This document shows, piece after piece, positions 17,549-64,000 of a stretch of DNA of 64,000 bases. The position numbers were made by a program, and so were the translations under genes. The notes under the pieces were generated by a model. It was not told the DNA's origin, searched no databases, and worked only from the letters and a program-made list of their open reading frames with translations. Source of the stretch: an uncultured Desulfobulbaceae bacterium. Lineage in GTDB: Bacteria > Desulfobacterota > Desulfobulbia > Desulfobulbales > BM004. The stretch spans positions 410-64,409 of the forward strand of contig CAMYKS010000005.1 of the NCBI GenBank assembly GCA_947259115.1, in the 5' to 3' direction. Every line of letters begins with the position of its first letter. Position 1 is the stretch's first letter.

Positions 17549-17564
17549 TGGCACACCCTTTGCT
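17549..17564 (+). promoter_or_regulatory. Sigma-54 (-24/-12) promoter
   Basis: TGGCACACCCTTTGCT matches the TGGCAC-N5-TTGCW consensus at every specified position. It lies 56 nt upstream of the ATG at 17620. Confidence 0.75.
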
Positions 17565-49861: not shown

Positions 49862-50707
49862 ATGAAAGACGACGCCTGCATATGTTTTCTGCAATGGGCC
49901 CTGCCGCTCCTGCACATGCGCTGGCCCGGCTTCCGCAAGGTGCGCGGCCAGGTGTGCAAACGTCTGGCCCGCAGGCTTGAAGAACTGCAGCTCGCCAACC
50001 TGAAAGACTACCGCTCCCACCTGCTGGACAATCCCTTGGAATGGCATATCCTTGACTCCATGTGCCGTATTACCATCTCCAGATTTTATCGTGACAGGGG
50101 GGTCTATAACAATCTGCAATCACAGATTTTCCCCGAACTCATTGACAATGCGAAGCTCAGAGGAGACAAAAACCTTTCCTGCTGGTGCATCGGCGGAGCC
50201 TCCGGCGAAGAGCCTTACTCCGTCAGTTTGTTATGGGAACTTTCGGGACTGGAAAGGAAGGGCATTGATTTAAAAATCCTGGCCACGGAAGTTGATCAAG
50301 CTATGATCAACCGGGCCAGGGTCGGCTGCTATCCAGCGAGCTCCATCCGTGAACTTCCCGCTCTCATGATGGGTCGGGCATTTTCACTACAGGGTGGCCG
50401 CCTCTGTTTAAAAGAAAAATACAAGGAGCGGGTACATTTCCTGCAGCAGGATATCAGGAACGAACAGCCCGCTGCAACCTTTGATCTCATCCTCTGCCGC
50501 AACCTGGTGTTCACCTATTTTTCCGAGGAGCTGCAGGAAGAAATCGGACAGGAAATCATCGAGCGTTTAACACCGGGGGGCTTCCTGGTCCTCGGCACTC
50601 ACGAAAGGTTTCCAAAAACATTGAAGGACCTAACTCAATGTCTGCAGGGACAGTCAATTATAAAAAAAGAAGGTGGTAAAATTTCGAGGGATAAGCAAAC
50701 AAGGTAG
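49862..50707 (+). CDS. CheR-type SAM-dependent methyltransferase
   Basis: ISRFYRD, CWCIGGASGEEPYSVSLLW, ILATEVDQAMINRARVGCY, FDLILCRNLVFTYF, LTPGGFLVLG. Confidence 0.75.
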   Translation: MKDDACICFLQWALPLLHMRWPGFRKVRGQVCKRLARRLEELQLANLKDYRSHLLDNPLEWHILDSMCRITISRFYRDRGVYNNLQSQIFPELIDNAKLRGDKNLSCWCIGGASGEEPYSVSLLWELSGLERKGIDLKILATEVDQAMINRARVGCYPASSIRELPALMMGRAFSLQGGRLCLKEKYKERVHFLQQDIRNEQPAATFDLILCRNLVFTYFSEELQEEIGQEIIERLTPGGFLVLGTHERFPKTLKDLTQCLQGQSIIKKEGGKISRDKQTR

Positions 50708-50876
50708 CCCTGGAACAAATCAATCAAAAGTGTCAATGATAAAGATTTGCTCCCCTTGCAGGGCATCTTTCTTAAGATGGGCATTGCCGAAGAAAGGGGA
50801 TGCGATAACGGCGGGTGATACGTCAATTTTCAGACAGGGGAGAAAAACTTCGGTAGCTGATTGCTCTGGGGATGAA

Positions 50877-51251
50877 CTATTGAGGTTTAAAGGGTATATA
50901 CGATTGTACCTTGTTGAGGAACTCAGAGTCACTACTGGATTTCATTATGTATCCATCTGCACCGCACTCATTAACCAGTTCCCGTAGTTCATTTCTATCT
51001 TTTACAGAATATAAAACGATCTTGGTTGCTAGATTACTCTCCCGTACTATTTTTGCGATACTATTTCCCGTCAGACCCGGCATTGAGACATCAAGCAGCA
51101 CACAATCAGGTTTAACTCTCATGATTTCCGATGTGGTACCCAAAGGCCTGGACCTTGTAATAACTTCATACCCTGCTTCTTCGAGTTTAATCCTTGTAAC
51201 GTCCAGGGTAATTGCGCAGTCATCGACCACCATAATTATGGGTTTTTTCAT
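50877..51251 (-). CDS. Single-domain response regulator (receiver only)
   Basis: Start moved to MKKPIIMVVDD (GGGGA upstream). VLLDVSMPGLTG, VLYS, GADGYIMK. Confidence 0.85.
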   Translation of the reverse strand: MKKPIIMVVDDCAITLDVTRIKLEEAGYEVITRSRPLGTTSEIMRVKPDCVLLDVSMPGLTGNSIAKIVRESNLATKIVLYSVKDRNELRELVNECGADGYIMKSSSDSEFLNKVQSYIPFKPQ

Positions 51252-51576
51252 GTTGTCCCCTTCTGTTGAAACCAACTCATAAAAGTTAGGCGCGTACACA
51301 TACAATCAACCAAACCACAAAGACACTTTAAAATATTCCGCAGATATATCAACTAAATAGAAGATTTGACATGGATAGAAGGTACTCCTTTTTATCTCCG
51401 ACGTTGATAAACGGGCGGTCATCTCACCGCACTCCGATTCATGTCACAAATAAAACCGAAAATAAGGTATAAAGATGGCGCCCATGTTGGATGTTAAGCG
51501 ATTGCTGATCTTATGGCAACTAATCCTGCCATTAAATTTAAGTTGACATTGACATATTTTTTACCAATATGGGCCA

Positions 51577-53022
51577 ATGTCAAAAGCAGCCCCTCAAACA
51601 CTTCCCACGACCCGGAACTGGCTCATTTTTTTCATGGTTGCCATCGGCATCTTCATGGCAACCCTGGACGGTTCCATAGTTAATATAGCCCTGCCTTCCA
51701 TCATGGCTGATTTCGGGGTTCCCCTTGCAGTCATCCAGTGGGTTGTCATGGTATACCTTTTAACCGTTACCTCATTGTTATTATCCTTTGGCAGACTGAG
51801 TGACATTAAAGGCCGACGCATCGTCTACAGTTCAGGCCTCCTCCTCTTTTCCCTGGGCTCACTTTTCTGCGCCCTGGCACCTTCCGCCCATTGGCTCATC
51901 GCGTCCCGTTTTTTCCAGGGGCTTGGTGCTGCAATGACCATGGCCTGTACTCCGGCCCTCATCGTTGACACCTTTCCAGAGGCCGAACGCGGCAGGGCCA
52001 TAGGTATGATGGGTTCAGTCGTGGCCATAGGCCTGACCGCAGGCCCTGCCCTGGGTGGCATCTTGACCCATTACTTTTCCTGGCGCGCCATTTTCTACAT
52101 TAATATCCCAATCGGCTTCCTTACCGCTGCCGGAGTTTTTTTTCTCCTCAAGGGCTCCAAGGCGGATATTACCAGGCCGGAGGAAACCTTTGACTGGCCC
52201 GGAGCAGTTATTCTGGCCGTGCTCTTGGGCACTCTGCTCATGGCCATCACCCATGCCTATGACTGGGGCTATTTTTCCGTTCCCACCATTTCTTTACTGA
52301 CCATTGCAATGATGGCTGCAGTCTCTCTTCTTTATGTTGAAACCAGAGTCCGGCACCCAATACTTTCACGTTCCCTATTTGCGATCAGACTCTTTTCCAT
52401 GCCCATCCTGGCAGCGGTCATCCTCTTTGTCTGTCTCTTTACCCTTGTTTTCCTCATGCCGTTTTATCTGATTCATCCGGGCGGTTACCCGGTCAATGTC
52501 GTGGGCGGTATCATGGCCTGCATTTTTGTTGCTCTCTTTGTTGTTTCTCCGTTTTCAGGGGCACTTTTTGACCGAATCGGTTCACGTTTTCTCTGCACTC
52601 TGGCCATGGGTCTTGTTGCCTGCTCACTTTTCTCCCTTGCCACCATCCCTGCCAAGGCCTCCATTTTCTCCATAATCTGGCGTCTTTCCCTGGCCGGCAT
52701 CGGCACCGCTGTTTTCCTGCCGCCCAACAGCGCTGCGGCTTTCAGCGCCGTGGCACCAAAAAACCGCGGTGTGGCTTCTGCAACTGTCGCTGCCGCCCGC
52801 AACCTTGGAATGGTCCTGGGAGTTGCCATAGGCGGCGCAATCTTTAACAGTGTTTTTTTCAAGTTAAGCAACGGCTTAAGTTTGCAGGAGTACCAACCGC
52901 CCCTGGAAGGAATCTTCATGGACAGCTTTCATTATGTCATGCTGGGAGGAGGCATTATCGCTGTCCTTGGCATGGTCATTGCCTATCTGCGCGGCCCGGA
53001 GAAGACAAACAGCGGGCGCTGA
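51577..53022 (+). CDS. MFS transporter, DHA2 (EmrB/QacA, 14-TMS) type
   Basis: LDGSIVNIALPSI, GRLSDIKGRR; ~14 hydrophobic segments; 481 aa. Confidence 0.85.
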   Translation: MSKAAPQTLPTTRNWLIFFMVAIGIFMATLDGSIVNIALPSIMADFGVPLAVIQWVVMVYLLTVTSLLLSFGRLSDIKGRRIVYSSGLLLFSLGSLFCALAPSAHWLIASRFFQGLGAAMTMACTPALIVDTFPEAERGRAIGMMGSVVAIGLTAGPALGGILTHYFSWRAIFYINIPIGFLTAAGVFFLLKGSKADITRPEETFDWPGAVILAVLLGTLLMAITHAYDWGYFSVPTISLLTIAMMAAVSLLYVETRVRHPILSRSLFAIRLFSMPILAAVILFVCLFTLVFLMPFYLIHPGGYPVNVVGGIMACIFVALFVVSPFSGALFDRIGSRFLCTLAMGLVACSLFSLATIPAKASIFSIIWRLSLAGIGTAVFLPPNSAAAFSAVAPKNRGVASATVAAARNLGMVLGVAIGGAIFNSVFFKLSNGLSLQEYQPPLEGIFMDSFHYVMLGGGIIAVLGMVIAYLRGPEKTNSGR

Positions 53023-53218
53023 AATTAGAGACTGAAGCAACTATGAAAATATGCATCCTGCCCTTCGGTCCGATCTGGGCCAACATATATTCTTTCTGCA
53101 TTACTGTCCCAAATAGCCGTTGCCCGTTTTTTTGCAGTTGCATACTCATCATCGATACGGGTAAGTAATAGCTGACTGTAAAATATCTTCAGGGTTCGGG
53201 GAACGAGGGAGAAACTTT

Positions 53219-54766
53219 ATGATACTAGAGAATCATACGGGGCGGATTGGATTTCAACTTACACCAGTCGTTATTTTCATATTATTTCTGCTTGTTCCGC
53301 AACAGGTCATGGCTGTTGCTGATGCTGATGTCCGGGCCATAAAAGCGGCAAGACAGGGCATGATAGCGGTTGTTTCCTATATGCCTTCAAGGGCTGATAT
53401 TTTTCCTCCGGTTAAAACAAAAGAAAAGAGAATTTTAAGCCGGGCCCAGCGGCAGACAGCCCTGCTTACCTGGAAGAGGTTCATGGACCAGGTACTGGCC
53501 CTGGACCTGTTTGCCGGGAACTATGCGCAAGAATATGAAAACACAGAAGGTGAAACCAAAAAACAGGCCTTTGATCTTTTCTATGGTGCTTTTGTGGCCC
53601 AGTATCTCTATGCCATGGATTTTATCAGCCTGGCAGAGAACAACCCGGCCCTGCATATCGTCTTTAATGAACCTGTGCCGGAAATCGGCCTGCCGGAGAA
53701 CACCTACGCGGATTTGAAATTCCGCTTTCTGAATGTTATGCGCGGCGCTGAATTTGCGCGGCTGCATCTCATATACGCCTACTACAGCGGGGACAGGCAA
53801 CCACTGCTTGCAGAAGAAATTGGTGCAGACAGCCAGGCCATCTGGAAGGCGGGCCAGGGCAGAGGCCCGCAAATGACCCTGGAAAATGCCATGCAGATCG
53901 TGCAGGATACAGGCTTTACCGCCTGGTTCCCCCTGCAGAAGCAGGTATCTGAAATGATGGGTGATACCAAGGTGTGGCGGCCTGGAAAAACGCTGATAAG
54001 CAAAAAACAGATCAGTGATATGATAAAAAGTCTGGAGCCTGGAGATGTGCTCCTGGAAAGACGGGAATGGTATCTTTCAAATATCGGCATGCCGGGTTTC
54101 TGGCCCCATGTTGCTCTGTATATCGGCACGCCGGCACAGAGAAAAGAGTACTTTGACACGGCTGAAGTGAAGCAATGGCTGCAGGGACTGGGACATGAAA
54201 ACGCCAGTCTTGAGGAGTACCTGCAGGCCGTCTACCCTGAAGCCTACCGGCTCTCAGAAGCAAAACAGAACGACGCTGGACAGGTAAGGGTCATAGAAGC
54301 AAAAGGCGAAGGGGTTATCTTCACTTCCCTGGAATATTCCGCCGGGGCCGATTCAGTTGCCGCTATACGACCCAGGCTTTCTAAAGTTGCCAAGGCAAGG
54401 GCCATAATCAGGGCCTTTCATTACAGCGGCAGACCCTATGATTTTAACTTTGACTTTCTCACCGATGCGGAGCTTGTCTGTACGGAGCTTGTCTATAAGG
54501 CCTATGAGAGCTCAAAAGATATCAAAGGGCTGCACCTGCCTGTTGCTACAATAGTGGGGCGTGAGGTGACACCGGCAAATTATTTCGCCAAGCTCTTTGA
54601 CGAGGAATTCACCACCCATAGCAGGCAGTTTGATTTTGTCCTTTTTTATGATGCCGATGAAAGGGAGCAGAAAGCCTTTGCTGCAGACGCCGATGCTTTC
54701 CGGCAAAGCTGGAAAAGGCCCAAGTGGCACATTCTGGTTAAAGACACTGAAGATGGAGGCAACTGA
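53219..54766 (+). CDS. Secreted protein with C-terminal permuted-papain (YiiX/NlpC-P60 superfamily) hydrolase-like domain
   Basis: Signal-like N-terminus (VVIFILFLLVPQQVMAVA). C-terminal LEPGDVLLERREWYLSNIGMPGFWPHVALYIG ... YDFNFDFLTDAELVCTELVYKAY gives His-then-Cys order, as in permuted NlpC/P60/YiiX. The N-terminal ~250 aa were not recognised. Confidence 0.5.
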   Translation: MILENHTGRIGFQLTPVVIFILFLLVPQQVMAVADADVRAIKAARQGMIAVVSYMPSRADIFPPVKTKEKRILSRAQRQTALLTWKRFMDQVLALDLFAGNYAQEYENTEGETKKQAFDLFYGAFVAQYLYAMDFISLAENNPALHIVFNEPVPEIGLPENTYADLKFRFLNVMRGAEFARLHLIYAYYSGDRQPLLAEEIGADSQAIWKAGQGRGPQMTLENAMQIVQDTGFTAWFPLQKQVSEMMGDTKVWRPGKTLISKKQISDMIKSLEPGDVLLERREWYLSNIGMPGFWPHVALYIGTPAQRKEYFDTAEVKQWLQGLGHENASLEEYLQAVYPEAYRLSEAKQNDAGQVRVIEAKGEGVIFTSLEYSAGADSVAAIRPRLSKVAKARAIIRAFHYSGRPYDFNFDFLTDAELVCTELVYKAYESSKDIKGLHLPVATIVGREVTPANYFAKLFDEEFTTHSRQFDFVLFYDADEREQKAFAADADAFRQSWKRPKWHILVKDTEDGGN

Positions 54767-54774
54767 GACAGGTT

Positions 54775-55854
54775 ATGGCAATGATAGTTTACGGCGTATC
54801 AGGTGAAGGCTCAGGCCATTCATCACGGGCCAGGGAGATAATTCGCCATCTGCAGGATAAGGGTCATAGGGTGAAGGTGGTTACCTATGACCGGGGTGTG
54901 AAAAATCTGCAGAATGATTTTGATGTTTTCGAAACCGAGGGTTTGCATATCAACAGTTCGGACAACAAGGTGTCCGTGGTAAGAACCTTTACCGACAATA
55001 TCCGCAAATTGCCCCGGGGGCATAAAAAGTTGCGGGCCCTGCGATATGACATATTCAAGAAACTGCAGCCGGAATGCGTCATCACAGACTTTGAGCCCTT
55101 GACCGCCTATCTGGCAAATCACTATGATATTCCCCTTATTACCGTAGACAACCAGCATCGCATGCGTTATATGCAATACCCTTGCCCTCCAAAACTGCAG
55201 AAGGACCGGCTGCTGACGGAAAATATTATCCGGGCCATGGTGCCGAAACCTGATGTTTCTCTGATCACGACTTTTTACTTCGGGCCCGTTAAAAATAAAC
55301 GGACCTTCTGTTTCCCGCCTATTTTGCGGAGCGAAGTTTTGTCTCTGGAGCCGAAAAAAAATGCACATATCCTGGTTTATCTCACAGGGGGCTTTGAAAC
55401 CTTTATCGACAAGCTTGAGGATTTCAAGCGGGAGCAGTTCATTGTATACGGGCATAATAAAGTGGAGAGCAAAGTTAACCTTGTCTTTAAACCTCCAAGC
55501 CGGGAAGGTTTTCTGCAGGACCTGGCGGGCTGCAAGGCTGTAATTGCTACTGCCGGGTTTACGCTTATGACAGAAGCCCTGCATCTGCGAAAGCCCTACC
55601 TGGCCTTGCCCATGCGGGGACAGTTTGAACAGGAATTGAACGGTTACCTCCTGGCCCGGCTTGGCTATGGGGCCAGCGTAAGAAAGGTCAGCAACATGGC
55701 GCTGAGCAGCTTTCTCTACCATCTGCAGGACTTTGGGAAAGCACTGCAGAGTTACCCTGCCACAGACAACAGTGGGATTACGGAAAAGCTTGACACGCTA
55801 CTGGCTGATAATTGTGCTTTGCTAAAGGATTACCACCGCAGGCGTTCTGCATAA
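54775..55854 (+). CDS. Glycosyltransferase, GT-B fold (GT28/MJ1255-like)
   Basis: MAMIVYGVSGEGSGHSSRAREIIRHLQDKGH is the MurG/MGT-like N-terminal G-rich loop. The C-terminal half ATAGFTLMTEALHLRKPYLALP..QFEQ..N is a nucleotide-sugar binding pattern. Confidence 0.65.
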   Translation: MAMIVYGVSGEGSGHSSRAREIIRHLQDKGHRVKVVTYDRGVKNLQNDFDVFETEGLHINSSDNKVSVVRTFTDNIRKLPRGHKKLRALRYDIFKKLQPECVITDFEPLTAYLANHYDIPLITVDNQHRMRYMQYPCPPKLQKDRLLTENIIRAMVPKPDVSLITTFYFGPVKNKRTFCFPPILRSEVLSLEPKKNAHILVYLTGGFETFIDKLEDFKREQFIVYGHNKVESKVNLVFKPPSREGFLQDLAGCKAVIATAGFTLMTEALHLRKPYLALPMRGQFEQELNGYLLARLGYGASVRKVSNMALSSFLYHLQDFGKALQSYPATDNSGITEKLDTLLADNCALLKDYHRRRSA

Positions 55855-55862
55855 AAGCGGCT

Positions 55863-57776
55863 TCACAGCAGGGGTGTGAGAAAATCACCAAACGTTTTGA
55901 ATATCATGGCGCCGAATATTTTATCGCTGCGTTCGGCGGAAACCTCGGGAAAACTGCCGACGCTTCTGTAGTTATTATAAAAATCTGCATGCTGGGGTGG
56001 GACGGGATCGCGGCCCTCAAGCAATTCAAAGGCACTGGCATAGCGTATGGGCCAGGGATCGATGGGCATGATACGTGAGATTCGGACCAGGGTTGCATTA
56101 ACTTCGTCCAGACTGAGCGGGATTTTGCGTTTTGCTATAACCCAGGAATTCCGGGGTTCCATGTCTTTGGCAATTGCAGCTTGAAGCCGGGAGGCAAAAT
56201 GGCTGTCGCGGATCACAATGCCAACTTCGGTATTCAGATTTTCGCTGCGGGGATCCAGGTTGTAAGAACCGATAAAGGCAACTTCACCATCGAGCACCAT
56301 GGATTTTGAATGCAGGCAGAAGTAAGGTTTTCCTTTGCTCTCCTCCTTTTTCATACTGCTGCTCTTTATCTCACTGGTATCGTTCGTATCGCTTATGCCG
56401 ACCGGATCCATATATCCATCCCAGATGGTCTGCCGCGGTTGGTATTTTTCTCTTTCAGAGGGAGTCAGTTCCCGGCTGAGCAACTTTGCATAGGTAGGCA
56501 TAAAGAGCTCCATGTCATCGGGATGGGGTTTGACTTCATAGAGCAGAAAGCCCAGCTCGGCGAGGTAAAGCTGTTTTTGTTTAAATGAAGCGGCATAGGT
56601 AAACCAGCTGTCAGTGGCAGCCAGACTGTTGGTTACGACCCGGATATCAAGTTTTGGCCGTTCTGCGAGCAATTTTTTAAAAAGTTTTACCGCCGGATCG
56701 CTGAGGACCAGGTAAGGGGTCTGAATGATAACCTGTTCTTTTGCCTTTCCGACCAGTTCAGCAAGTTCGAGGGTGATGCGGCCGGCCCCTTTGAAGCGCC
56801 CAAACCATTTTTTATTGTTTTTACCGGGTGCATCATCAATAAATACGGCATGGTCCACTTCCTGAAGATTGTCGGTGAAGTGCTGCTTCAGATAATCATA
56901 CTCTGAAGCCCTTGCTTCAATATCCGTAAAAAGTTCATGCAGCCGGAAGCCCCGGCGACTCGACCAGATTCTGAAATCCCCCTGTTGCCGGCTCTTCCTG
57001 ACATCGAACAGGTCCTGCAATAAATAGGCATGCCGGTATTTCCAGTATTTATTGAAACTGGCCGACATCTCATTAACCACCGGCCCCATAATAAGAATAT
57101 CCCTGTCCTTGTAATTGAGCCCTCTGGCCTGGTCAAAATAGGCATTTTCATAATTTCTGCCGCCGGTAATGCCGATGATATTATCAATAAGAAAAACCTT
57201 GTTATGCATACGCTGATTGAGCTGATTAAAGCCTGTGACAAGGGAATACAGTTTTTCCATCAGGGTCGGCTTAATTTTTTTCTTCAGGAGGGCGGGACCT
57301 ATTGGGTTATAAATTTTAATTTGCAGGTTCGGGTGCACGGAAGCCAGAAAGGTTGATAATTCAAGGTTTTTCTCCGATGCCACATGGTCGATAAGCACCT
57401 GCACCTTTACACCGCGTTTAGCAGCCTGGATCAATTCATACATCATGAGCCGTCCCACCTCATCATTGGACCAGATAAGGGTCTGGATTGAAATGGATCT
57501 TCGTGCTGCCCTGATCAGATGAATTCGTGCCAAAAGAGCCTCGGAACCAATATCAAGCATAAAGACATGATTTTTAGAATCCGAAAGTTGAAGAGAGTCA
57601 GCCCGCTCGATAAATGGCGAGCGGACTGCGTTATGGAATTCCGTCTCAGAGCCTGGGTCAGGGTCATCCGGGATAGTTGAATCAATACAGAAAGATGGAG
57701 AGGCATGGCCCGCCAGAAAAGCAAACAGGAAGATGAGCTGAAAGCAATACTTTGGTATAGGGAACGTTTTATTCAT
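55863..57776 (-). CDS. Phospholipase D / transphosphatidylase family protein (two HKD motifs), secreted
   Basis: Signal-like N-terminus. HKD1 MHNKVFLIDNIIGITGGRN. HKD2 LHSKSMVLDGEVAFIGSYNLDPRS. Its ATG overlaps the stop of the upstream EBP gene (ATGA). Confidence 0.85.
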   Translation of the reverse strand: MNKTFPIPKYCFQLIFLFAFLAGHASPSFCIDSTIPDDPDPGSETEFHNAVRSPFIERADSLQLSDSKNHVFMLDIGSEALLARIHLIRAARRSISIQTLIWSNDEVGRLMMYELIQAAKRGVKVQVLIDHVASEKNLELSTFLASVHPNLQIKIYNPIGPALLKKKIKPTLMEKLYSLVTGFNQLNQRMHNKVFLIDNIIGITGGRNYENAYFDQARGLNYKDRDILIMGPVVNEMSASFNKYWKYRHAYLLQDLFDVRKSRQQGDFRIWSSRRGFRLHELFTDIEARASEYDYLKQHFTDNLQEVDHAVFIDDAPGKNNKKWFGRFKGAGRITLELAELVGKAKEQVIIQTPYLVLSDPAVKLFKKLLAERPKLDIRVVTNSLAATDSWFTYAASFKQKQLYLAELGFLLYEVKPHPDDMELFMPTYAKLLSRELTPSEREKYQPRQTIWDGYMDPVGISDTNDTSEIKSSSMKKEESKGKPYFCLHSKSMVLDGEVAFIGSYNLDPRSENLNTEVGIVIRDSHFASRLQAAIAKDMEPRNSWVIAKRKIPLSLDEVNATLVRISRIMPIDPWPIRYASAFELLEGRDPVPPQHADFYNNYRSVGSFPEVSAERSDKIFGAMIFKTFGDFLTPLL

Positions 57777-59254
57777 ACCGGTTTCTCCAGCCAGTATTCT
57801 ATATGTTTTTTGACAGTGCGCCGGTCGAGGCTGATTTGCCTGGCAACAGATTCATATGACCCCAATCGGTCATAAAGGAGTTTACAGTAGCAGGCCAGCA
57901 ACTCCTGGGCACTCATGGAACCGCTGTTGATGGCTTCCTGGAGCAGGTCACCGGTGTGGGGAGATGCTGTGACTGTGATTTCATAACTCCCCTTGAGCAG
58001 CAGGCGCCTGACACACTGTTCCAGCTCACGGACATTGCCGCTCCACTGGTAGTCCGATGGCAGATATTTTTTAATTTTTAAGGCGATATCGGCCGCAAGT
58101 TCTGGTGAAGAATAGCCTATAATGCGCCTTATTGTATGCTCCAGCAGGTCTGTCATCTCATCTGGGTCTTCCTGTAATCGCTGACGCAGCGGCGGAATGG
58201 AGATTATGTCCGAACAAAGCCGATAGTAAAAGTCATAACGGAATCGGCCCTCTGTGAGGAGTGCATCGAGGGTCCGGTTGGCGGCTCCAATGACCCGTCC
58301 TTTAAATCGCTGTTTTTCATGACTGCCGACAGCGGAATAGCTTCTTTCCTGCAGGACCTGGAGCAGTTTGACCTGAATGGGAAGGGAGACTTCTCCTATT
58401 TCATCAAGAAAGATAGCTCCATGGGGGCTACACCTGGAAAAAATACCCCTGTGGGCTTCAATTGCTCCGGTAAAGGCACCTTTTCTATGCCCGAAAAGTT
58501 CAGATTCAATAAGCTGTTCAGAGTAATGTGAGAGGGTAATCGAGATGAAAGCCCTGGTAAAACTCTCGGTAAAAATTCCTTTACGTTCATTAAAGGGAAT
58601 ATATCCGGACCTGCCTATGGCTGCTGCCGCCGTTCCCTTGCCAGTGCCTGTTTCACCGAGGAGAAGCGTGGAAAAATCCTCCATGCGGTTCCAAAGATGT
58701 TGCGTGTAGAGTCTGATGTCATTGGTGATTACGTTGCTCCACAGGCTTTGACGCAGGGCTCTCATGCTCCGGCTGCGGCCAACTAAGCCTTTTCTTATGA
58801 AATAATAGGCCCGCCGCATTTGATAAAACAGGGCAAAATACCTGACAGCCTCCTGGGATGAAAAACCGCTGCCGGTAAGCAGTGCCAGGGCTTCCTTCGC
58901 AAAACCAACGCTTACGGGAGAGTCTTCCTTTGCAATTTGTTCCTTTATTAATCCATCAAAAGCATCGGAGAAAAGGTGAAAAGCATGATAGAGATATGCA
59001 TTTTCAACCAGATAACGGTCATTGCCGGAAAAACGGGTAATGTCATTTCTGCCTGACTCCTTGAGCTGCTGCAAGCGGCTGGTGACTATTTGTTTTGATC
59101 GCTTGTGGAGTTCATAGGCTGATAGTTTTGAGGACAAGCCACATATCTCAAATTCAACCCGTTTGCGTTCGTTACTAAAGGGGTTGACCAGGATCGCCCT
59201 GGTAACAAGATGAAAAAAATCACGCTCTGAAGCTGCAAGGGAAAATTTAGCCAT
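57773..59254 (-). CDS. Sigma-54-dependent transcriptional activator (bEBP) with a non-receiver N-terminal domain
   Basis: Start moved to MAKFSLAASERDFF. AAA+ core LLGETGTGKGTAA, ESELFGHRKGAFTGA (GAFTGA), GAIFLDEIGE, WSGNVRELE. C-terminal HTH SYESVARQISLDRRTVKKHI. The N-terminal ~190 aa have no REC Asp pocket that I can see. Confidence 0.85.
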   Translation of the reverse strand: MAKFSLAASERDFFHLVTRAILVNPFSNERKRVEFEICGLSSKLSAYELHKRSKQIVTSRLQQLKESGRNDITRFSGNDRYLVENAYLYHAFHLFSDAFDGLIKEQIAKEDSPVSVGFAKEALALLTGSGFSSQEAVRYFALFYQMRRAYYFIRKGLVGRSRSMRALRQSLWSNVITNDIRLYTQHLWNRMEDFSTLLLGETGTGKGTAAAAIGRSGYIPFNERKGIFTESFTRAFISITLSHYSEQLIESELFGHRKGAFTGAIEAHRGIFSRCSPHGAIFLDEIGEVSLPIQVKLLQVLQERSYSAVGSHEKQRFKGRVIGAANRTLDALLTEGRFRYDFYYRLCSDIISIPPLRQRLQEDPDEMTDLLEHTIRRIIGYSSPELAADIALKIKKYLPSDYQWSGNVRELEQCVRRLLLKGSYEITVTASPHTGDLLQEAINSGSMSAQELLACYCKLLYDRLGSYESVARQISLDRRTVKKHIEYWLEKPV

Positions 59255-59398
59255 AGTACATATTATGTACAATGCATAGACATAAAATAGCAAGCGGCCA
59301 AAAAAATTAATTTGGGGTGCTTTTCACCCGGGGACTCAGTTCCTAAGGTAAAATATAACAAACATCAGCAAGCCGGCTACTCCTCAGAGAGGATGTGG

Positions 59399-60046
59399 TT
59401 AGTTCTTAATGGGTAGCATTCCAATGACAGCTCCGACCAATGCTCCTCCCAGGTGCGCCATGGGAACCGGGATAAAAAGGTCTGCAGAAGGGACAAACAA
59501 GGTCTGGGCGGTTTTGAGCTCAAAAACTGATTTGCCAATAAAAAAAAGGCCAAGCAGCAGATAGGGGCTTTTGTGCACTAAGCTTTTCCCGGTTGCATTC
59601 CTGCGGTAGAGCAATATCAACAGCAGCATGAACAACCCGGAGTCAATACCTGAGAGGCCCCGGTAATATATCATTTCCGGCAGCAGAGCAAAAACAAGCA
59701 GTGAAATAACCAGGGAACCGGTTGCGAAACAAGCCAGCAACCGACGCCTGCTGAACCATTCTATTGTTCCTGCCAAGACAAGAAACACCAGGATGTCCCA
59801 GAAAAAATGTGCCGCAGACCAATGTGTTAAGTGCCCCGTTACAGTCCGCCATACCTCACCTTGTTGGAGGGCCTCCCTGTCAAATTGAAACCAGGACGTC
59901 ATTTGCGGTGATATGGAGACAGCCAGGGCTATCAACCCGAAGACTAGAGTAATAAATGGGAAATTACGTTGGCCCTGGAATAAACTGTCCTGCTTTTCCA
60001 TGGGACTTTTATGGCCTGAAGGAGTTATTTGGAATGCGCGCTGCAT
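59399..60046 (-). CDS. Rhomboid-family intramembrane serine protease, rhombosortase-like
   Basis: GEVWRTVTGHLTHWSAAHFFWDILVFLVLAG. Catalytic-Ser helix YRGLSGIDSGLF (GxSG). Catalytic-His helix AHLGGALVGAVIG. About 6 TM helices and ~200 aa. It sits next to a GlyGly-CTERM-like protein. The start may be the internal Met at 60001. Confidence 0.7.
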   Translation of the reverse strand: MQRAFQITPSGHKSPMEKQDSLFQGQRNFPFITLVFGLIALAVSISPQMTSWFQFDREALQQGEVWRTVTGHLTHWSAAHFFWDILVFLVLAGTIEWFSRRRLLACFATGSLVISLLVFALLPEMIYYRGLSGIDSGLFMLLLILLYRRNATGKSLVHKSPYLLLGLFFIGKSVFELKTAQTLFVPSADLFIPVPMAHLGGALVGAVIGMLPIKN

Positions 60047-60096
60047 GGCTATTTTCTCCTGTCTTTGATTTACCCTGTGCGGCTGAATGCCCGAAA

Positions 60097-60118
60097 GCGG
60101 CCGGAATGACCCGGCCGC
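60097..60118 (-). terminator. GC-rich hairpin between the VIT-vWA gene and the rhombosortase gene (attenuator?)
   Basis: GCGGCCGG-aatgac-CCGGCCGC is a perfect 8-bp stem. The minus-strand RNA continues UUUCGGGCAUUC. Confidence 0.5.
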
Positions 60119-60143
60119 CTCCGGGGGATGAGTTCAAAACCGG

Positions 60144-62273
60144 TTATTTTTTTCTGTTGCGGGTTACCAGTAGAGAACCTGCAAGGGCTAAGGCAATAAG
60201 TGCTGTGCCAGGGTCTAAGGCCCCACCGCCACCAAAGCCCGGCAGGTTAACGCTGCGCCGAGAATTATTTGCAGGGTTGGCAGGTGTGGGTCGGTTGCCT
60301 GCATTTTTTGGTGCCTGCCGGCTTCCTGCCTGCTGGTTTGGCTGAGTAGCTGAGGCAAGCTGTAACTGCTGCTGCCCTTTTTCCACCGGACCAAGGTCAA
60401 CCATTGCCTGATTACGGATATTTTCAAGCATTTCCTGCCGCTGGTTCTGGGCCCTGCGGTCCCGCTTCATTCGATCAGCGTTGCGCTGCTCAATTTTCCA
60501 ACGCTTGTATTCCTGATTATTTTCCAGGACGAGAAACGAGGTGTATTCACTGGCAATTGAGTATGTCTCACCAAGTTGAATGATTTCTGCAACAGCACCC
60601 TTTGAGCCGGTCATGTCTATTTGTTCCTGCAGCTTCTGCAGCCGCTGCCAGGCCCACATGCGTTCTATTTCAGGGTTGCTTGCATCAATGGCCGGGAAAT
60701 CCAGACTGGCCGTAGTTTTAAAGGGGCGGCCGTTAACTTTTCCATTCATGAGTATGGTAGCCTGTCCGCTTTTTGTATAACGGCCATAAAGCCTGACCGG
60801 GACACCGTGATAGAGGTTTGGCAGTTTTTCCGGCACCAGGTCATAGACTTTCACACCGTCCACTGAGATGGCCAGGTCCACAGCAACCGGGTGCATAAGC
60901 TTGCGCCGGAAGGCTTTGGCCTGACGTTTAAAATCATCACCCTGTGAGATAAAGGCAGCCAGGCCGCCGGCATCCTCTGCTATCTGCTTCAGCAGGGGGC
61001 GGTTAACCTCGTTGCCCACACCAATGCAAAATACCCGGACATTTGCGGGCCTTGAACCGATCAGGCTGATAAGCTGTTGACGTTCTGCCTGCTCGGTCAT
61101 GCCGTCACTTAAAATAACTGCATTCAAAGTTCTGTCAGGATTGCCATATTTATAGGCTGTTGTCAGGGCTGGTCTGAGGTGGGTGCCGCCGCGGGCCTCC
61201 TGGGAAGTAAGATAATTTGCAGCCTGCTCAAGATTAACCGAGTCGGCATTTTGCAAGGTATTGAACAGGGTGTTGACCTGCCTGTTGAAGGTAATGATCT
61301 CGAATCGATCTTCCGGGCTCAAGGCCTTAACAAAGGCGTCAACCGAACTTGTGGAGGTTTCAAGCTTTGCCTCGTTCTGCATGGAGCCGGACACATCGAG
61401 AATAAAAACATAATCCGAACCGGTCTGCACTTTTTCCAGTTCATCTCCTGCGGTGAGTGTGAGACTGAAGTAACCGTCCTCCCCCCGCTCTTTGGAGGTG
61501 ATAAGGTCAAGGCCGGTCTGGGGTCTTGAAACCTGAAAGGCAAGAACAAGATCACGGCCCAGATCCCCGTCCCTGTTCTCCAGGCTCGCTTCGTAGTAGT
61601 TATCTGAATGCTTTACAACCAGGAAGTCCTGTTTATGGCTCGGACTTTCCAAGGCAACTATGGGAATGGCTGATTTAATGTCAAGGGATGCTGCAAATCT
61701 GCCCTGAACCTTGGAATCTATGCTGGGCCTGGTTGCAGTGGCAAGGGGATAGACAAATGTTGTCCAGTCGTTGTCAAAGTCAAGTTCCTGGTAGTAGGCA
61801 ATCTGCACGCGCTGTTCAGCTCCTGCGGCAATGGGGAAGATCCTCATCTCAAAAGTTTTGTAATCGGTCTGTTCAAGCAGTCCTGGATCGCGTCTTCTTT
61901 GTTTGTAGCTGTTATAAATTTCCCGGGCCCTTTCCTTTTCCAGGACTTCGCCGATCATTTCCTGACCATTGATCCACATGCTGAAGTTTGAGACTGAGGC
62001 TCCTTTTGGTACGGGAAAAGTATAAAGCGCCTCGACCTGTCTGTTCTCGGTATTTCGGAATACCTGGGTAACTTCTGTGACCGCTACCCCATTATTGATG
62101 GTGACGCTGACATCATGCTCAATGATTTCCAGCACCCCTCCAAAGCCCCCTTCTGCTATGAGGAGTCCGGCTGCCTTTGCTTTCGGCACTGGCGCAAGTG
62201 ACATAATTAAAAATAACGTAATAAATCCAAGGATTGCTAAACATCTGTTTCGGTCAAATATTCGGGTTTTCAT
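60144..62273 (-). CDS. VIT + von Willebrand factor A domain protein with GlyGly-CTERM-like sorting tail
   Basis: Signal peptide. VIT region (VSVTINNGVAVTEVTQVFRNTENRQVEALYTFPVPKGASVSNFSMWINGQ). vWA MIDAS YVFILDVSGSM. C-terminus PGFGGGGALDPGTALIALALAGSLLVTRNRKK has a Gly run, a TM helix and a basic cluster. Confidence 0.8.
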   Translation of the reverse strand: MKTRIFDRNRCLAILGFITLFLIMSLAPVPKAKAAGLLIAEGGFGGVLEIIEHDVSVTINNGVAVTEVTQVFRNTENRQVEALYTFPVPKGASVSNFSMWINGQEMIGEVLEKERAREIYNSYKQRRRDPGLLEQTDYKTFEMRIFPIAAGAEQRVQIAYYQELDFDNDWTTFVYPLATATRPSIDSKVQGRFAASLDIKSAIPIVALESPSHKQDFLVVKHSDNYYEASLENRDGDLGRDLVLAFQVSRPQTGLDLITSKERGEDGYFSLTLTAGDELEKVQTGSDYVFILDVSGSMQNEAKLETSTSSVDAFVKALSPEDRFEIITFNRQVNTLFNTLQNADSVNLEQAANYLTSQEARGGTHLRPALTTAYKYGNPDRTLNAVILSDGMTEQAERQQLISLIGSRPANVRVFCIGVGNEVNRPLLKQIAEDAGGLAAFISQGDDFKRQAKAFRRKLMHPVAVDLAISVDGVKVYDLVPEKLPNLYHGVPVRLYGRYTKSGQATILMNGKVNGRPFKTTASLDFPAIDASNPEIERMWAWQRLQKLQEQIDMTGSKGAVAEIIQLGETYSIASEYTSFLVLENNQEYKRWKIEQRNADRMKRDRRAQNQRQEMLENIRNQAMVDLGPVEKGQQQLQLASATQPNQQAGSRQAPKNAGNRPTPANPANNSRRSVNLPGFGGGGALDPGTALIALALAGSLLVTRNRKK

Positions 62274-62336
62274 AGTTAATCCCTCCTAGAGGTTTGTTTT
62301 CTTGCTTTCGGTTTATGTTGATCTCGCTGAAGCTAT

Positions 62337-62352
62337 AGCGAAACCTGTGCCA
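62337..62352 (-). promoter_or_regulatory. Sigma-54 promoter of the VIT-vWA/rhombosortase operon
   Basis: The minus strand reads TGGCACAGGTTTCGCT (TGGCAC-N5-TCGC, one mismatch in the -12 element). It lies 64-79 nt upstream of the ATG at 62273. Confidence 0.6.
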
Positions 62353-62627
62353 AAAACACAAAAACATACAAATACTTGATTTTAATATAAAAAATAAAAA
62401 AACTTCCCTGGAGCTGTTTTCATTTATATTGGCCTGACATACACATAATGAACAGTATGCATACAAAATATGCTTATCATGCCCGCCCGGTTATGAAAAA
62501 AATGAACAATGCGCTTGATTTTATCGTTGCAGGAAATGAAGTGGCAATGGCTGTCCATTTGATGTATATGGAATTTTCGGCGAAAGTCATTACTTGGAGG
62601 AATGCAGCTCAATTATTCAAGAACCAT

Positions 62628-64000
62628 ATGAAAGAAACACCTCACGAACATTCAATGATCAATATTCTGCATAAAAAAGGCCGGGGGTTTCTGCTGGGCC
62701 TGGCAATCATTGCCATCGGTTCACTTGTCGGCGTTGGGTGGTATAACGTCTATAAACCTTTGCCCGCTGGAATTTCCTTTGCGGGCCGGGTATGGCCTGT
62801 AAAGGAAATCTCCTTCTACCGGGACCTGACGTGGGTTGATGCTGAAGGAGTGCGTCAATCCCAGCAGGAGATTTTTGACAAGGTTCTCAAAATGATTGAT
62901 GGAGCCAGGCAAGTTATTGTGCTTGACATGTTTCTTTTCAACGATTTTATGGGCAGGGACCAAGCACCTTACAGGAGGCTTGCCCGGGAAATTACAGATG
63001 CCCTTGTGGCCCGTAAAAAAAAATATCCCGAAATGCTGATAGTGGTAATCACAGACCCGGTAAACACGGTCTATGGAGGCATGGAAAACCCCTATTTTGA
63101 AAGGATGGCAGCTGAAAACATCCAGGTGATTTTTACAAAACTTGAGCGTTTGCGCGATAGTAATCCTGCCTATTCTGCTTTTTGGCGTCTCTTTGTTAAG
63201 CCTTTTGGTAACAACCCCAGTTCACTGGTACCAAATCCGTTTGGAAGCGGCCGTGTTTCCCTGCGCAGTTATCTGGCAATGTTTAATTTCAAGGCCAATC
63301 ATCGCAAACTCATAATTTGTGATGCTGAAGACAGCTACGCAGCCCTTGTAACCTCTGCAAACCCCCATGACGGAAGCAGTGCCCACGGCAATGTGGCCTT
63401 TTACTTTAAAGGCCCCCCGGTGCAAGACCTCCTGGAGAGCGAAAAGGCGGTACTTGATTTTTCAAAGGGAGCCGCTTTACCTTCTTTTGTTCCAGAAATA
63501 ATGGAAAGCAGTGATAGCGAAACCACTGTGCAGGTATTAAGCGAAAGCAAAATTAAGGACGTTCTGCTAACTGCCATAGAACAGGCAGGAGCAGGAGACA
63601 GGCTGGCAATGGTGGCATTCTACATGGCAGACAGGGAAATTGTCAGTGCCCTGAAGAAGGCCCACAGCCGCGGTGCAGCAGTCCGGGTTCTTCTTGACCC
63701 AAACAAGGATGCTTTTGGCAGGGAGAAAAACGGCATCCCCAACAGGCAAGTGGCTGCCGAACTGGTGAAGAATGGCATTTCTGTCAGGTGGAGTAATACC
63801 CATGGTGAGCAATTACATACCAAAATGCTTCTGGGGGAATATAAACTGGGCAAAAACATTGTTATTGCGGGATCGGCAAATTTTACCAGAAGAAACTTGG
63901 ATAATCTGAACCTGGAAACAGATATTGCGGTACACGGCTCTAAGGACATACCTTTGTTTGTGGATGTTAGAGAGTATATCGATTTGTTGTGGCACAACAG
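62628..64000 (+). CDS. Phospholipase D-like (HKD) membrane-anchored protein, 3' partial (runs off window end; absent from the ORF track)
   Basis: Translated by hand: MKETPHEHSMINILHKKGRGFLLGLAIIAIGSLVGVGWY (TM) ... ANHRKLIICDAEDSYAALVTSANPHDGSSAHGN (HKD1) ... LHTKMLLGEYKLGKNIVIAGSANFTRRN (HKD2-like). The frame is open to base 64000. The start is uncertain: in-frame ATGs also occur at 62493 and 62655. Confidence 0.75.
   Translation, partial: MKETPHEHSMINILHKKGRGFLLGLAIIAIGSLVGVGWYNVYKPLPAGISFAGRVWPVKEISFYRDLTWVDAEGVRQSQQEIFDKVLKMIDGARQVIVLDMFLFNDFMGRDQAPYRRLAREITDALVARKKKYPEMLIVVITDPVNTVYGGMENPYFERMAAENIQVIFTKLERLRDSNPAYSAFWRLFVKPFGNNPSSLVPNPFGSGRVSLRSYLAMFNFKANHRKLIICDAEDSYAALVTSANPHDGSSAHGNVAFYFKGPPVQDLLESEKAVLDFSKGAALPSFVPEIMESSDSETTVQVLSESKIKDVLLTAIEQAGAGDRLAMVAFYMADREIVSALKKAHSRGAAVRVLLDPNKDAFGREKNGIPNRQVAAELVKNGISVRWSNTHGEQLHTKMLLGEYKLGKNIVIAGSANFTRRNLDNLNLETDIAVHGSKDIPLFVDVREYIDLLWHN

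Follow-up and report, generated by a model that had tools for sequence, protein, structure and literature searches.

How rhombosortase substrates gain, keep and lose their lipid is the question left by the study of Vibrio cholerae VesB, in which the existence of a second enzyme stayed undecided (Gadwal et al., 2018, PMC6219818). The question returns with a gene cluster in a 64,000-nt stretch of DNA from an uncultured Desulfobulbaceae bacterium (contig CAMYKS010000005.1), where a rhombosortase and a VIT-vWA protein with a GlyGly-CTERM tail (the cargo) lie among a sigma-54 activator gene and two genes of the phospholipase D (PLD) family. The whole stretch is called the window, and all window coordinates count from its first letter. 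On VesB, Gly383 carries an additional mass of 43 Da (ethanolamine) or 197 Da (glycerophosphoethanolamine); phosphatidylethanolamine (PE) was suspected as the lipid, transamidation by the rhombosortase was proposed and a second enzyme was not excluded, and fragmentation or hydrolysis was considered as the source of the +43 Da species (PMC6219818). A first-pass annotation of the window had noted the glycerophosphoethanolamine group on the new C-terminus, in agreement with Gadwal et al. (2018, PMC6219818), and proposed that a PLD-family enzyme takes part in attaching or remodeling the lipid.

Dedicated systems in which one rhombosortase is encoded beside its single GlyGly-CTERM target were described by Haft and Varghese (2011) in genomes including Geobacter, Desulfuromonas, Syntrophobacter, Opitutus and Rhodopirellula, and the vault/VIT-vWA family was reported to bear GlyGly-CTERM, PEP-CTERM or LPXTG tails in different genomes (PMC3237569). 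The pair of cargo and rhombosortase is already published (PMC3237569). New here are a cognate sigma-54 activator, which completes a conserved three-gene core of activator, VIT-vWA cargo and rhombosortase, and a facultative arm of lipid enzymes, to which PLD belongs only in the broader lineage of the window. In the literature library that was searched, no publication linked rhombosortase to sigma-54, PLD or acyltransferases.

Results

Relatives of the locus were collected in two ways. For the rhombosortase set, 24 rhombosortases were aligned, one genome per species was scanned and the best 80 of 368 relatives were fetched with 10-kb flanks. For the second set, a metagenome scan with homologues of the C92 enzyme encoded in the window yielded 80 loci (L094-L173). 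About 175 relative loci were fetched in total and are designated by L-numbers. In the species-representative collection, with one genome per species, no rhombosortase was more than 46% identical to that of the window. All features listed in the first-pass annotation were recovered in place by open reading frame listing and family scans.

The rhombosortase (215 aa, 59399-60046, minus strand) scored 109.1 bits against NCBIfam TIGR03902 (cut-off 84), and its catalytic residues, S132 in the motif GLSG and H198, were invariant in the 24 aligned sequences. The rhomboids of L012 (115.7 bits), L123 (95.9 bits) and L133 (94.8 bits) passed the same model. A cargo orthologue on the same strand was found directly upstream of the rhombosortase in 71 of the 80 loci; seven of the nine loci lacking it end less than 1.3 kb upstream of the rhombosortase. 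These results uphold the earlier description of the locus as an operon for a dedicated rhombosortase and the GlyGly-CTERM VIT-vWA cargo beside it. That this cargo is the only one can be checked only inside the window, where it holds: among 164 open reading frames of at least 80 aa, no other has a GlyGly-CTERM-like tail.

The cargo itself (709 aa, 60144-62273, minus strand) is predicted to be secreted, with a signal peptide, the MIDAS motif DVSGS and Pfam scores of 112.8 bits for VIT and 77.3 bits for VWA_3; the 40 highest-scoring orthologues were 53-66% identical to it. Its C-terminal tail reads ...GFGGGGALDPGTALIALALAGSLLVTRNRKK. The sorting signal (60147-60236, minus strand; GGGGALDPGTALIALALAGSLLVTRNRKK) comprises GGGGALDP, a hydrophobic helix with the transmembrane segment at residues 685-703 and the basic cluster RNRKK. 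This combination of a Gly/Ser-rich motif, a hydrophobic helix and a basic cluster at the extreme C-terminus of a protein encoded beside a rhombosortase defines a GlyGly-CTERM signal. TIGR03501 was not listed for the cargo in the NCBIfam scan (E <= 0.01), the model spanning 22 residues and matches that short being easily filtered. A tail of the form G(n)-A-x-D-P, hydrophobic stretch and R-K-rich end was seen, as judged by eye, in about 60 of 65 cargo orthologues. By analogy with V. cholerae VesB, the rhombosortase of the window would cleave the GlyGly-CTERM tail and leave a lipid-linked C-terminus.

The third gene of the core encodes the sigma-54 activator (493 aa, 57773-59254, minus strand), which consists of an all-alpha N-terminal domain (residues 1-200), an AAA+ domain with the GAFTGA motif and a C-terminal segment resembling a helix-turn-helix. 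Sigma54_activat (PF00158) matched with 140.8 bits, the motif reading ...FGHRKGAFTGA..., and a receiver domain was absent in the Pfam scan. A possible start at TTG 59293 was rejected in favor of ATG 59254, which gives 493 aa and is identical to the NCBI gene call. The C-terminus had no Pfam helix-turn-helix match at E <= 0.01, and a Fis-like segment was recognized there by eye. Named activator models (PrsR TIGR02915, NifA, NorR, NtrC and others) reached 148-174 bits through the AAA+ core only, far from their cut-offs of 443-795, so that no NCBIfam model names this protein. The roughly 200 residues of the N-terminal domain were modeled as nine helices with a predicted local distance difference test score (pLDDT) of 90.5; Foldseek matched the model to nothing in the PDB, the domain is not covered by Pfam or NCBIfam, and a sequence search of solved structures was uninformative. 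As modeled, it is a previously undescribed all-helical domain. The activator family has 650 cluster representatives among 1.84 billion proteins.

Of 59 loci that could be evaluated, 28 encode a full-length activator orthologue, 35-42% identical including the N-terminal domain, upstream of the cargo and in divergent orientation; these loci come from Verrucomicrobiota, Planctomycetota, Acidobacteriota and one gammaproteobacterium. The position of the gene varies: it lies 3' of the rhombosortase in the window and in L082, upstream on the same strand in L087 and divergently in most loci.

A sigma-54 (-24/-12) promoter driving the cargo-rhombosortase operon, the presumed target of the activator, could be read directly from the sequence as TGGCACaggttTCGCT (62352-62337, minus strand). 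It has one mismatch to TGGCAC-N5-TTGCW, lies 64 nt from the ATG of the cargo and is followed by a strong AGGAGG. Sites with up to two mismatches were no more frequent in the window than expected by chance (36 found, 44.6 expected from shuffles), and only three sites in the 64 kb, the cargo promoter among them, had at most one. The promoter is almost unchanged in two closer relatives, with TGGCACGGGTTTCGCT at the same position in L082 and L087, and TGGCACGGCTCTGGCT was found upstream of the cargo in L105, L122, L123, L138 and L140. Across loci, sense-strand -24/-12 motifs preceded the cargo in 15 of 36 loci with the activator and in 2 of 29 without it, compared to 1 of 65 loci in the antisense-strand control. 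Sigma-54 motifs upstream of the cargo thus track the presence of the activator, and with the orthologues described above this bears out the view of the first-pass annotation that the activator is dedicated to the system.

In the alignment of the window with L082 and L087, the stretch 84-128 nt upstream of the -24 element (62436-62480, minus strand) is partly conserved and represents a tentative activator-binding region. Palindrome pairs resembling ATGTNCAT occur at comparable positions in relatives, namely upstream of the promoters in L087 and L123, and ATGTNCAT pairs precede the activator gene in L082 and L093. They are suggestive of an activator-binding motif. No exact ATGTNCAT copies are present at the cargo promoter of the window (62436-62480), and the motif is therefore kept only as a lead. 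Similar palindromes were also observed directly 5' of the activator start codon (window 59257-59290, L082:8255-8273, L093:436-454), where this short, AT-rich motif may indicate autoregulation. For the activator gene and the PLD gene that follows it, no promoter was identifiable; sigma-70 promoter and terminator scans of 53000-62700 gave hits no more common than in shuffled sequence.

Between cargo and rhombosortase, folding predicted a GC-rich stem-loop of 16 bp without U-tract (60090-60125, minus strand). The 97-nt spacer has a predicted folding energy of -40.3 kcal/mol and a fold z of -3.4. The stem-loop is kept in L082 and L087 with a changed upper stem, and L133 has an unrelated GC hairpin at the same intercistronic position. 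An Rfam scan of 50000-64000 gave no match.

The neighborhood test of PLD gave a different picture from that of the activator. PLD1 (637 aa, 55863-57776, minus strand) is an exported two-HKD enzyme with two PLDc_2 matches and a signal-peptide-like N-terminus, and its ATG overlaps the activator stop as ATGA, an arrangement of translational coupling. The HKD residues H191/K193/D198 and H489/K491/D496 are invariant. In the structural model (pLDDT 83) the nearest solved folds were PssA and bacterial, human and Streptomyces PLD (E ~1e-17) rather than nucleases, so that PLD1 is predicted to be a phospholipid head-group enzyme. It stayed below the cut-offs for cardiolipin synthase (TIGR04265, 105 of 290 bits), ClsB (NF008427, 98 of 281) and PssA (NF006946, 48 of 314), and belongs to a separate exported family, with proteins of around 600 aa and over 1300 homologues. 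Conservation of the order activator-then-PLD1 was limited to the clade of the window (L082-86, L093 and L178), and the ATGA overlap recurs in L082, L093 and L178.

The first-pass annotation had made the linkage of rhombosortase and HKD genes across genomes the test of its proposal. No homologues of PLD1 or of the second PLD protein were found by tblastn in any of the 80 rhombosortase loci, and a strict HKD pattern and a hidden Markov model built from PLD sequences detected an HKD gene within 10 kb in a single locus, L003. This gene was rejected as a partner: without a signal peptide and with no more than a remote relationship to PLD1, its product is probably a coincidental neighbor. One in 80 is about the level of chance for a family with a few copies per genome. 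The PLD1 homologues at 50-55% identity were in unrelated gene contexts in four of four cases, and a rhomboid encoded 5 kb from a PLD1 homologue in L090 is not a rhombosortase, scoring 41.4 bits against the TIGR03902 cut-off of 84. PLD2 (62628-64000, plus strand, running off the window), a membrane-anchored protein with a transmembrane helix at residues 20-38 and one visible PLDc_2 domain (314-439), was likewise discarded: it had no homologue in the approximately 175 fetched loci, its place being taken by a cadherin-like giant protein in L082-86 and by the activator in L087, and it is probably not part of the system. Of the two flanking PLD enzymes that had been emphasized, PLD1 thus keeps its coupling to the activator in the window clade, and PLD2 lacks a counterpart in the fetched loci. 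Given the single HKD gene, the location of PLD1 homologues elsewhere and the absence of PLD2 from relatives, PLD cannot be required for the attachment chemistry, and general participation of a PLD-family enzyme in lipid attachment did not withstand the test.

In a second clade, a sister subfamily of exported PLDs (about 500 aa, 33% identical to PLD1) is encoded beside the module. Of the C92 loci with at least 1.5 kb of downstream sequence, five contained the module and four of these also had a PLD, compared to 2 of the 45 loci lacking the module; the module-bearing loci represent one clade. PLD beside the module is confined to the broader lineage of the window. In one sample of each clade the PLD gene was split into two open reading frames (L083:10226-11574 and L140:7880-9366), which could reflect a frameshift, pseudogene formation or faulty assembly; if genuine, the split would make PLD dispensable.

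A more widespread lipid-enzyme neighbor is the C92 protein, which the first-pass annotation had named only in passing within a lipid/envelope theme. This part of the theme gained weight, as C92 recurs beside the module, whereas PLD is not a general partner. The window gene encodes an exported YiiX-like permuted-papain enzyme (515 aa, 53219-54766, plus strand, convergent with PLD1) that matched Peptidase_C92 (PF05708) with 46.8 bits (cut-off 27). Its catalytic residues stand in permuted order, H297 before C421, and both are invariant; signal peptides were predicted on C92 and on both exported PLD types. The E. coli YiiX equivalog NF007458 gave 22.4 bits (cut-off 216), and the search of structure sequences was uninformative, with a match to PDB 2if6 at E = 0.0095 over residues 391-432 only. 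Directly after the C92 gene follows a GT-B glycosyltransferase (MJ1255/VC2487-like, 54775-55854, plus strand) with 389.8 bits for PF13528 and 188.3 bits for TIGR00661 (MJ1255/VC2487), narrowly below the cut-off of 195.9. The pair of C92 and glycosyltransferase is kept in L093, L094, L096 and L134. A candidate sigma-54 site before this pair (TGGCATGGTCATTGCC, 52968-52983) was not convincing, having two mismatches and lying inside the 3' end of an MFS gene, 236 nt before C92. The latter gene encodes a DHA2-family MFS transporter (51577-53022, plus strand), co-directional and just upstream of the pair; beyond it lie genes for a CheR-like methyltransferase and an orphan receiver-domain protein (49862-51305), for which no link to the module was seen.

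C92 is a recurrent lipid-enzyme neighbor of the module, in at least five arrangements and several lineages. Immediately 3' of the rhombosortase and on the same strand, 4 of the 80 rhombosortase loci encode a PlsC-C92 fusion of about 1030 aa (L003:3470-6556, L012:10719-13817, L034:2837-5782 and L041:10713-13814, from Planctomycetaceae and Vicinamibacterales). The PlsC-type acyltransferase is N-terminal, and the C92 domain is 30-35% identical to the window C92 over about 420 residues. Three hydrophobic helices between the two halves would place C92 outside the cytoplasm, which matches the signal peptides of the stand-alone proteins. The activator is followed by C92 in L105, L122, L123, L138, L140 and L146, cargo, rhombosortase and C92 follow each other in L133, and the convergent arrangement is shared by the window and L093. 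In the C92 set, 6 of the 80 loci contained the cargo (L105, L122, L123, L138, L140 and L133), the first five of them with a tblastn match to rhombosortase and L133 with a rhombosortase shown later. In their main layout, one strand encodes an Aas-like protein, the rhombosortase and the cargo, the opposite strand encodes the activator and C92, and the PLD gene is convergent. Random placement would put C92 within 10 kb in fewer than 1% of genomes, as against the observed 4 of 80 and 6 of 80.

Acyl-ACP-phospholipid acyltransferases of the Aas/LplT type are encoded beside the module in L123, L008 and L046, and the Aas protein of L141 passed NF006386 with 1531.8 bits (cut-off 1221). In L122 and L123 the Aas/LplT-like gene, just 3' of the rhombosortase, encodes 1286 aa with MFS, PlsC, ACP and AMP-binding domains and is preceded by a second sigma-54 promoter, TGGCACGCCCCGTGCT (L123:4959-4974 and L122:64-79, both minus strand), with two ATGTACAT palindromes about 115 nt further upstream. 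In L124 (1-12687) and L141 (2171-13407), a full-length orthologue of the activator family (51-54% identical) is divergent from a lipid operon consisting of an amidohydrolase-like gene, Aas/LplT, C92 (two copies in L141) and a glycosyltransferase resembling monogalactosyldiacylglycerol (MGDG) synthase; L175 is similar. Neither cargo nor rhombosortase was found in the fetched DNA of L124 and L141, and L175 likewise lacks the cargo. An activator-family gene precedes a PAP2 lipid phosphatase in L174, and in L176 the activator is in the classical divergent arrangement. The most common neighbors of C92 were MGDG-synthase-like glycosyltransferases (10-12 loci) and the phosphatidate phosphatase APP1 (6-7 loci), with PF13528 glycosyltransferases, PLD and Aas as further neighbors in the 80-locus set; C92 and PLD occurred together without the module in L131 and L147. 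The composition of these neighborhoods suggests an undescribed glycerolipid-remodeling gene set. PLD1, C92 and the glycosyltransferase of the window are not part of the core but belong to this set of C92, PlsC/Aas, exported PLD and lipid glycosyltransferases, which is an optional but repeated addition to the module or the activator family, in several arrangements and phyla.

Several other genes were observed beside the module or the activator: a CDP-alcohol phosphatidyltransferase and a radical-SAM gene (L082:11975-13980), a metallo-beta-lactamase-fold protein and a PAP2 phosphatase (L174:10560-12241), a patatin-like phospholipase (L176:15404-17185) and a prepilin peptidase (L178:2830-3618). 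Elsewhere in the window, a perfect sigma-54 consensus (TGGCACACCCTTTGCT, 17549-17564, plus strand) lies 56 nt before an unrelated operon for an HMA-domain protein, an FtrD-like protein and a MacB-type ABC transporter, from which a GAF-HlyD protein is encoded divergently.

Discussion

The locus is best explained, in our view, as a conserved three-gene sorting module to which an optional, probably co-regulated set of lipid-processing genes has been added, a reading we consider somewhat more probable than its negation. By analogy with VesB, the activator would switch on the cargo-rhombosortase operon, and the cargo would be exported and then held by its C-terminal helix. The rhombosortase would cut after the glycines, and the new C-terminus would become amide-linked to a phosphoethanolamine lipid. 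The stem-loop between the two genes probably sets a high ratio of cargo to protease. The lipid enzymes would be co-regulated with the cargo and would work on the anchor, or on by-products in the membrane, once attachment is complete; PLD would therefore not be the attachment catalyst. Should PLD act on the anchor, cleavage and release of the cargo as a C-terminal ethanolamide would be the most likely outcome; such a direct role is possible but unproven.

Several observations weigh against this explanation. The candidate activator-binding motif is weak in the window itself, and regulon membership is deduced from gene position and motifs. Within 10 kb, lipid-enzyme genes are missing from about 73 of the 80 rhombosortase loci, and any role of lipid enzymes must therefore be dispensable or supplied in trans. 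About 70 of the 80 C92 loci lack the module and place C92 among glycolipid and phosphatidate enzymes, and the lipid set may therefore have a general function for membrane lipids. The loci with exported PLD beside the module represent just two related clades and thus few independent events.

These observations lead to the strongest rival, in which PLD1, C92 and the glycosyltransferase form an independent lipid-remodeling island that turns phospholipid into phosphatidate, diacylglycerol and glycolipid as part of general membrane remodeling, for instance when phosphate is limiting, without acting on the cargo; adjacency to the module would result only from lineage history or shared regulation. 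The prevalence of lipid enzymes among the neighbors of C92, the many C92 loci without the module and the joint occurrence of C92 and PLD without it in L131 and L147 agree with such an island. It does not readily account for the C92 genes found directly 3' of the rhombosortase in three phyla without the other lipid genes, either co-directional with it or as PlsC fusions, nor for the three clades in which the specialized activator shares an operon with these lipid genes or is transcribed divergently from them, nor for the excess of C92 near the module over random placement. We consider the island possible but on balance doubtful, and assign a similar, marginally better standing to the broader possibility that the lipid enzymes are co-regulated with the cargo without acting on it directly or have an independent role in lipid remodeling.

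A second rival goes further than the module with an optional lipid set and makes C92 the real second enzyme, which would re-tailor the PE-linked cargo in the manner of LnsA, with Aas/LplT recycling lyso-PE and PLD serving as sheddase. C92 stands beside the rhombosortase in the arrangements described above, PlsC/Aas enzymes co-occur with it, and the literature on related enzymes fits: permuted NlpC/P60 enzymes target the acyl chains of lipids, a fatty acid occupied the pocket of crystallized YiiX, LnsA N-acylates lipoproteins, HRASLS/PLAAT enzymes produce N-acyl-PE, which NAPE-PLD cuts to N-acyl-ethanolamine, and Tox-Act1 cleaves phosphatidylglycerol and PE. The +43 Da ethanolamide of VesB is also the remnant expected from PLD cleavage of a PE-linked protein. 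Yet the proposal is purely inferential, most rhombosortase loci lack a nearby C92, and V. cholerae shows the +43 Da species without a known linked PLD, with fragmentation or hydrolysis considered by the authors (PMC6219818). We therefore judge it unlikely.

In its regulatory form, this proposal states that the same sigma-54 activator also controls an accessory anchor-processing arm, in which C92 re-tailors, Aas/LplT recycles and PLD sheds. The product of the rhombosortase, amide-linked to PE, is chemically an N-acyl-PE, so that cleavage by an exported PLD could set free an ethanolamide (+43 Da). C92 would re-tailor the acyl chains of the anchor and Aas/LplT recycle the resulting lyso-PE, and in the window lineage the exported HKD PLD would cut the phosphodiester and shed the cargo as a C-terminal ethanolamide with a VesB-like +43 Da. 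Control of such an arm by the activator seems rather improbable to us, and direct action of the lipid enzymes on the anchor appears no more than a minor prospect.

The weakest rival is the initial idea that an HKD/PLD enzyme performs lipid attachment by transphosphatidylation as a general part of rhombosortase sorting: despite the tight coupling of PLD1 to the activator in the window clade, its export and resemblance to lipid-acting PLDs, and the room left by Gadwal et al. for a second enzyme (PMC6219818), it is already largely refuted by the neighborhood test, in which the single HKD protein is at background level and without signal peptide, the close PLD1 homologues are elsewhere and PLD2 is unconserved, and the VesB bond is an amide to the ethanolamine nitrogen, which transphosphatidylation does not make and for which PLD1 is not needed, so that we regard it as very improbable.

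With the conserved module and its optional lipid set as the preferred explanation, PLD is removed as a general candidate for the second enzyme of the VesB study. The candidates are instead the exported C92, the PlsC/Aas acyltransferases and, in some lineages, the exported PLD, all of which travel with the simplest one-cargo systems. The activator family of the three-gene regulatory module is small, with about 650 cluster representatives, and its sensor domain has no solved relative; the activator offers an experimental handle for inducing the system. Even if the lipid genes turn out to be unrelated, the bioinformatic description of 2011 would be extended by a regulator and a conserved promoter. 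If the anchor-processing arm is true, it would be a bacterial, protein-level counterpart of the PLAAT/NAPE-PLD pathway.

Comparison with known systems

The closest parallels to the lipid enzymes are by analogy only. Like C92, LnsA/LnsB and PLAAT involve a YiiX/LRAT-like permuted papain that moves acyl chains on lipid-anchored proteins or PE; LnsA is about 18% identical to YiiX. Lnt with LplT-Aas offers a parallel in that Aas re-acylates lyso-PE, and NAPE-PLD in being a phosphodiesterase that cuts N-acyl-PE, although it is not an HKD enzyme.

Among sorting systems, the PEP-CTERM/exosortase system with PrsK/PrsR similarly combines C-terminal sorting with its own sigma-54-dependent activator. The window activator differs from PrsR (TIGR02915; 148 bits, cut-off 502) in lacking a receiver domain and in having a different, all-helical N-terminal domain. 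The Gram-negative sortase targets of TIGR03788 share the VIT-vWA body and the one-to-one pairing with a sorting enzyme, but the cargo, at 270.5 bits, falls below the cut-off of 551.65, its tail is GlyGly-CTERM instead of LPXTG, and its partner is a rhomboid and not a sortase.

The V. cholerae RssP/VesB system resembles the proposed reaction in the cut after GlyGly and the glycerophosphoethanolamine-containing group on the new C-terminal glycine, which is known biochemically for VesB only. It differs in that many dispersed targets share one enzyme, that surface display needs the type II secretion system and that no linked activator or lipid enzymes have been described there. The systems of Haft and Varghese have the same one-to-one pairing of a rhombosortase with a GlyGly-CTERM target as the window; their paper contains neither a sigma-54 regulator nor a phospholipase (PMC3237569), and the activator together with the C92, acyltransferase and PLD neighbors are the additions made here.

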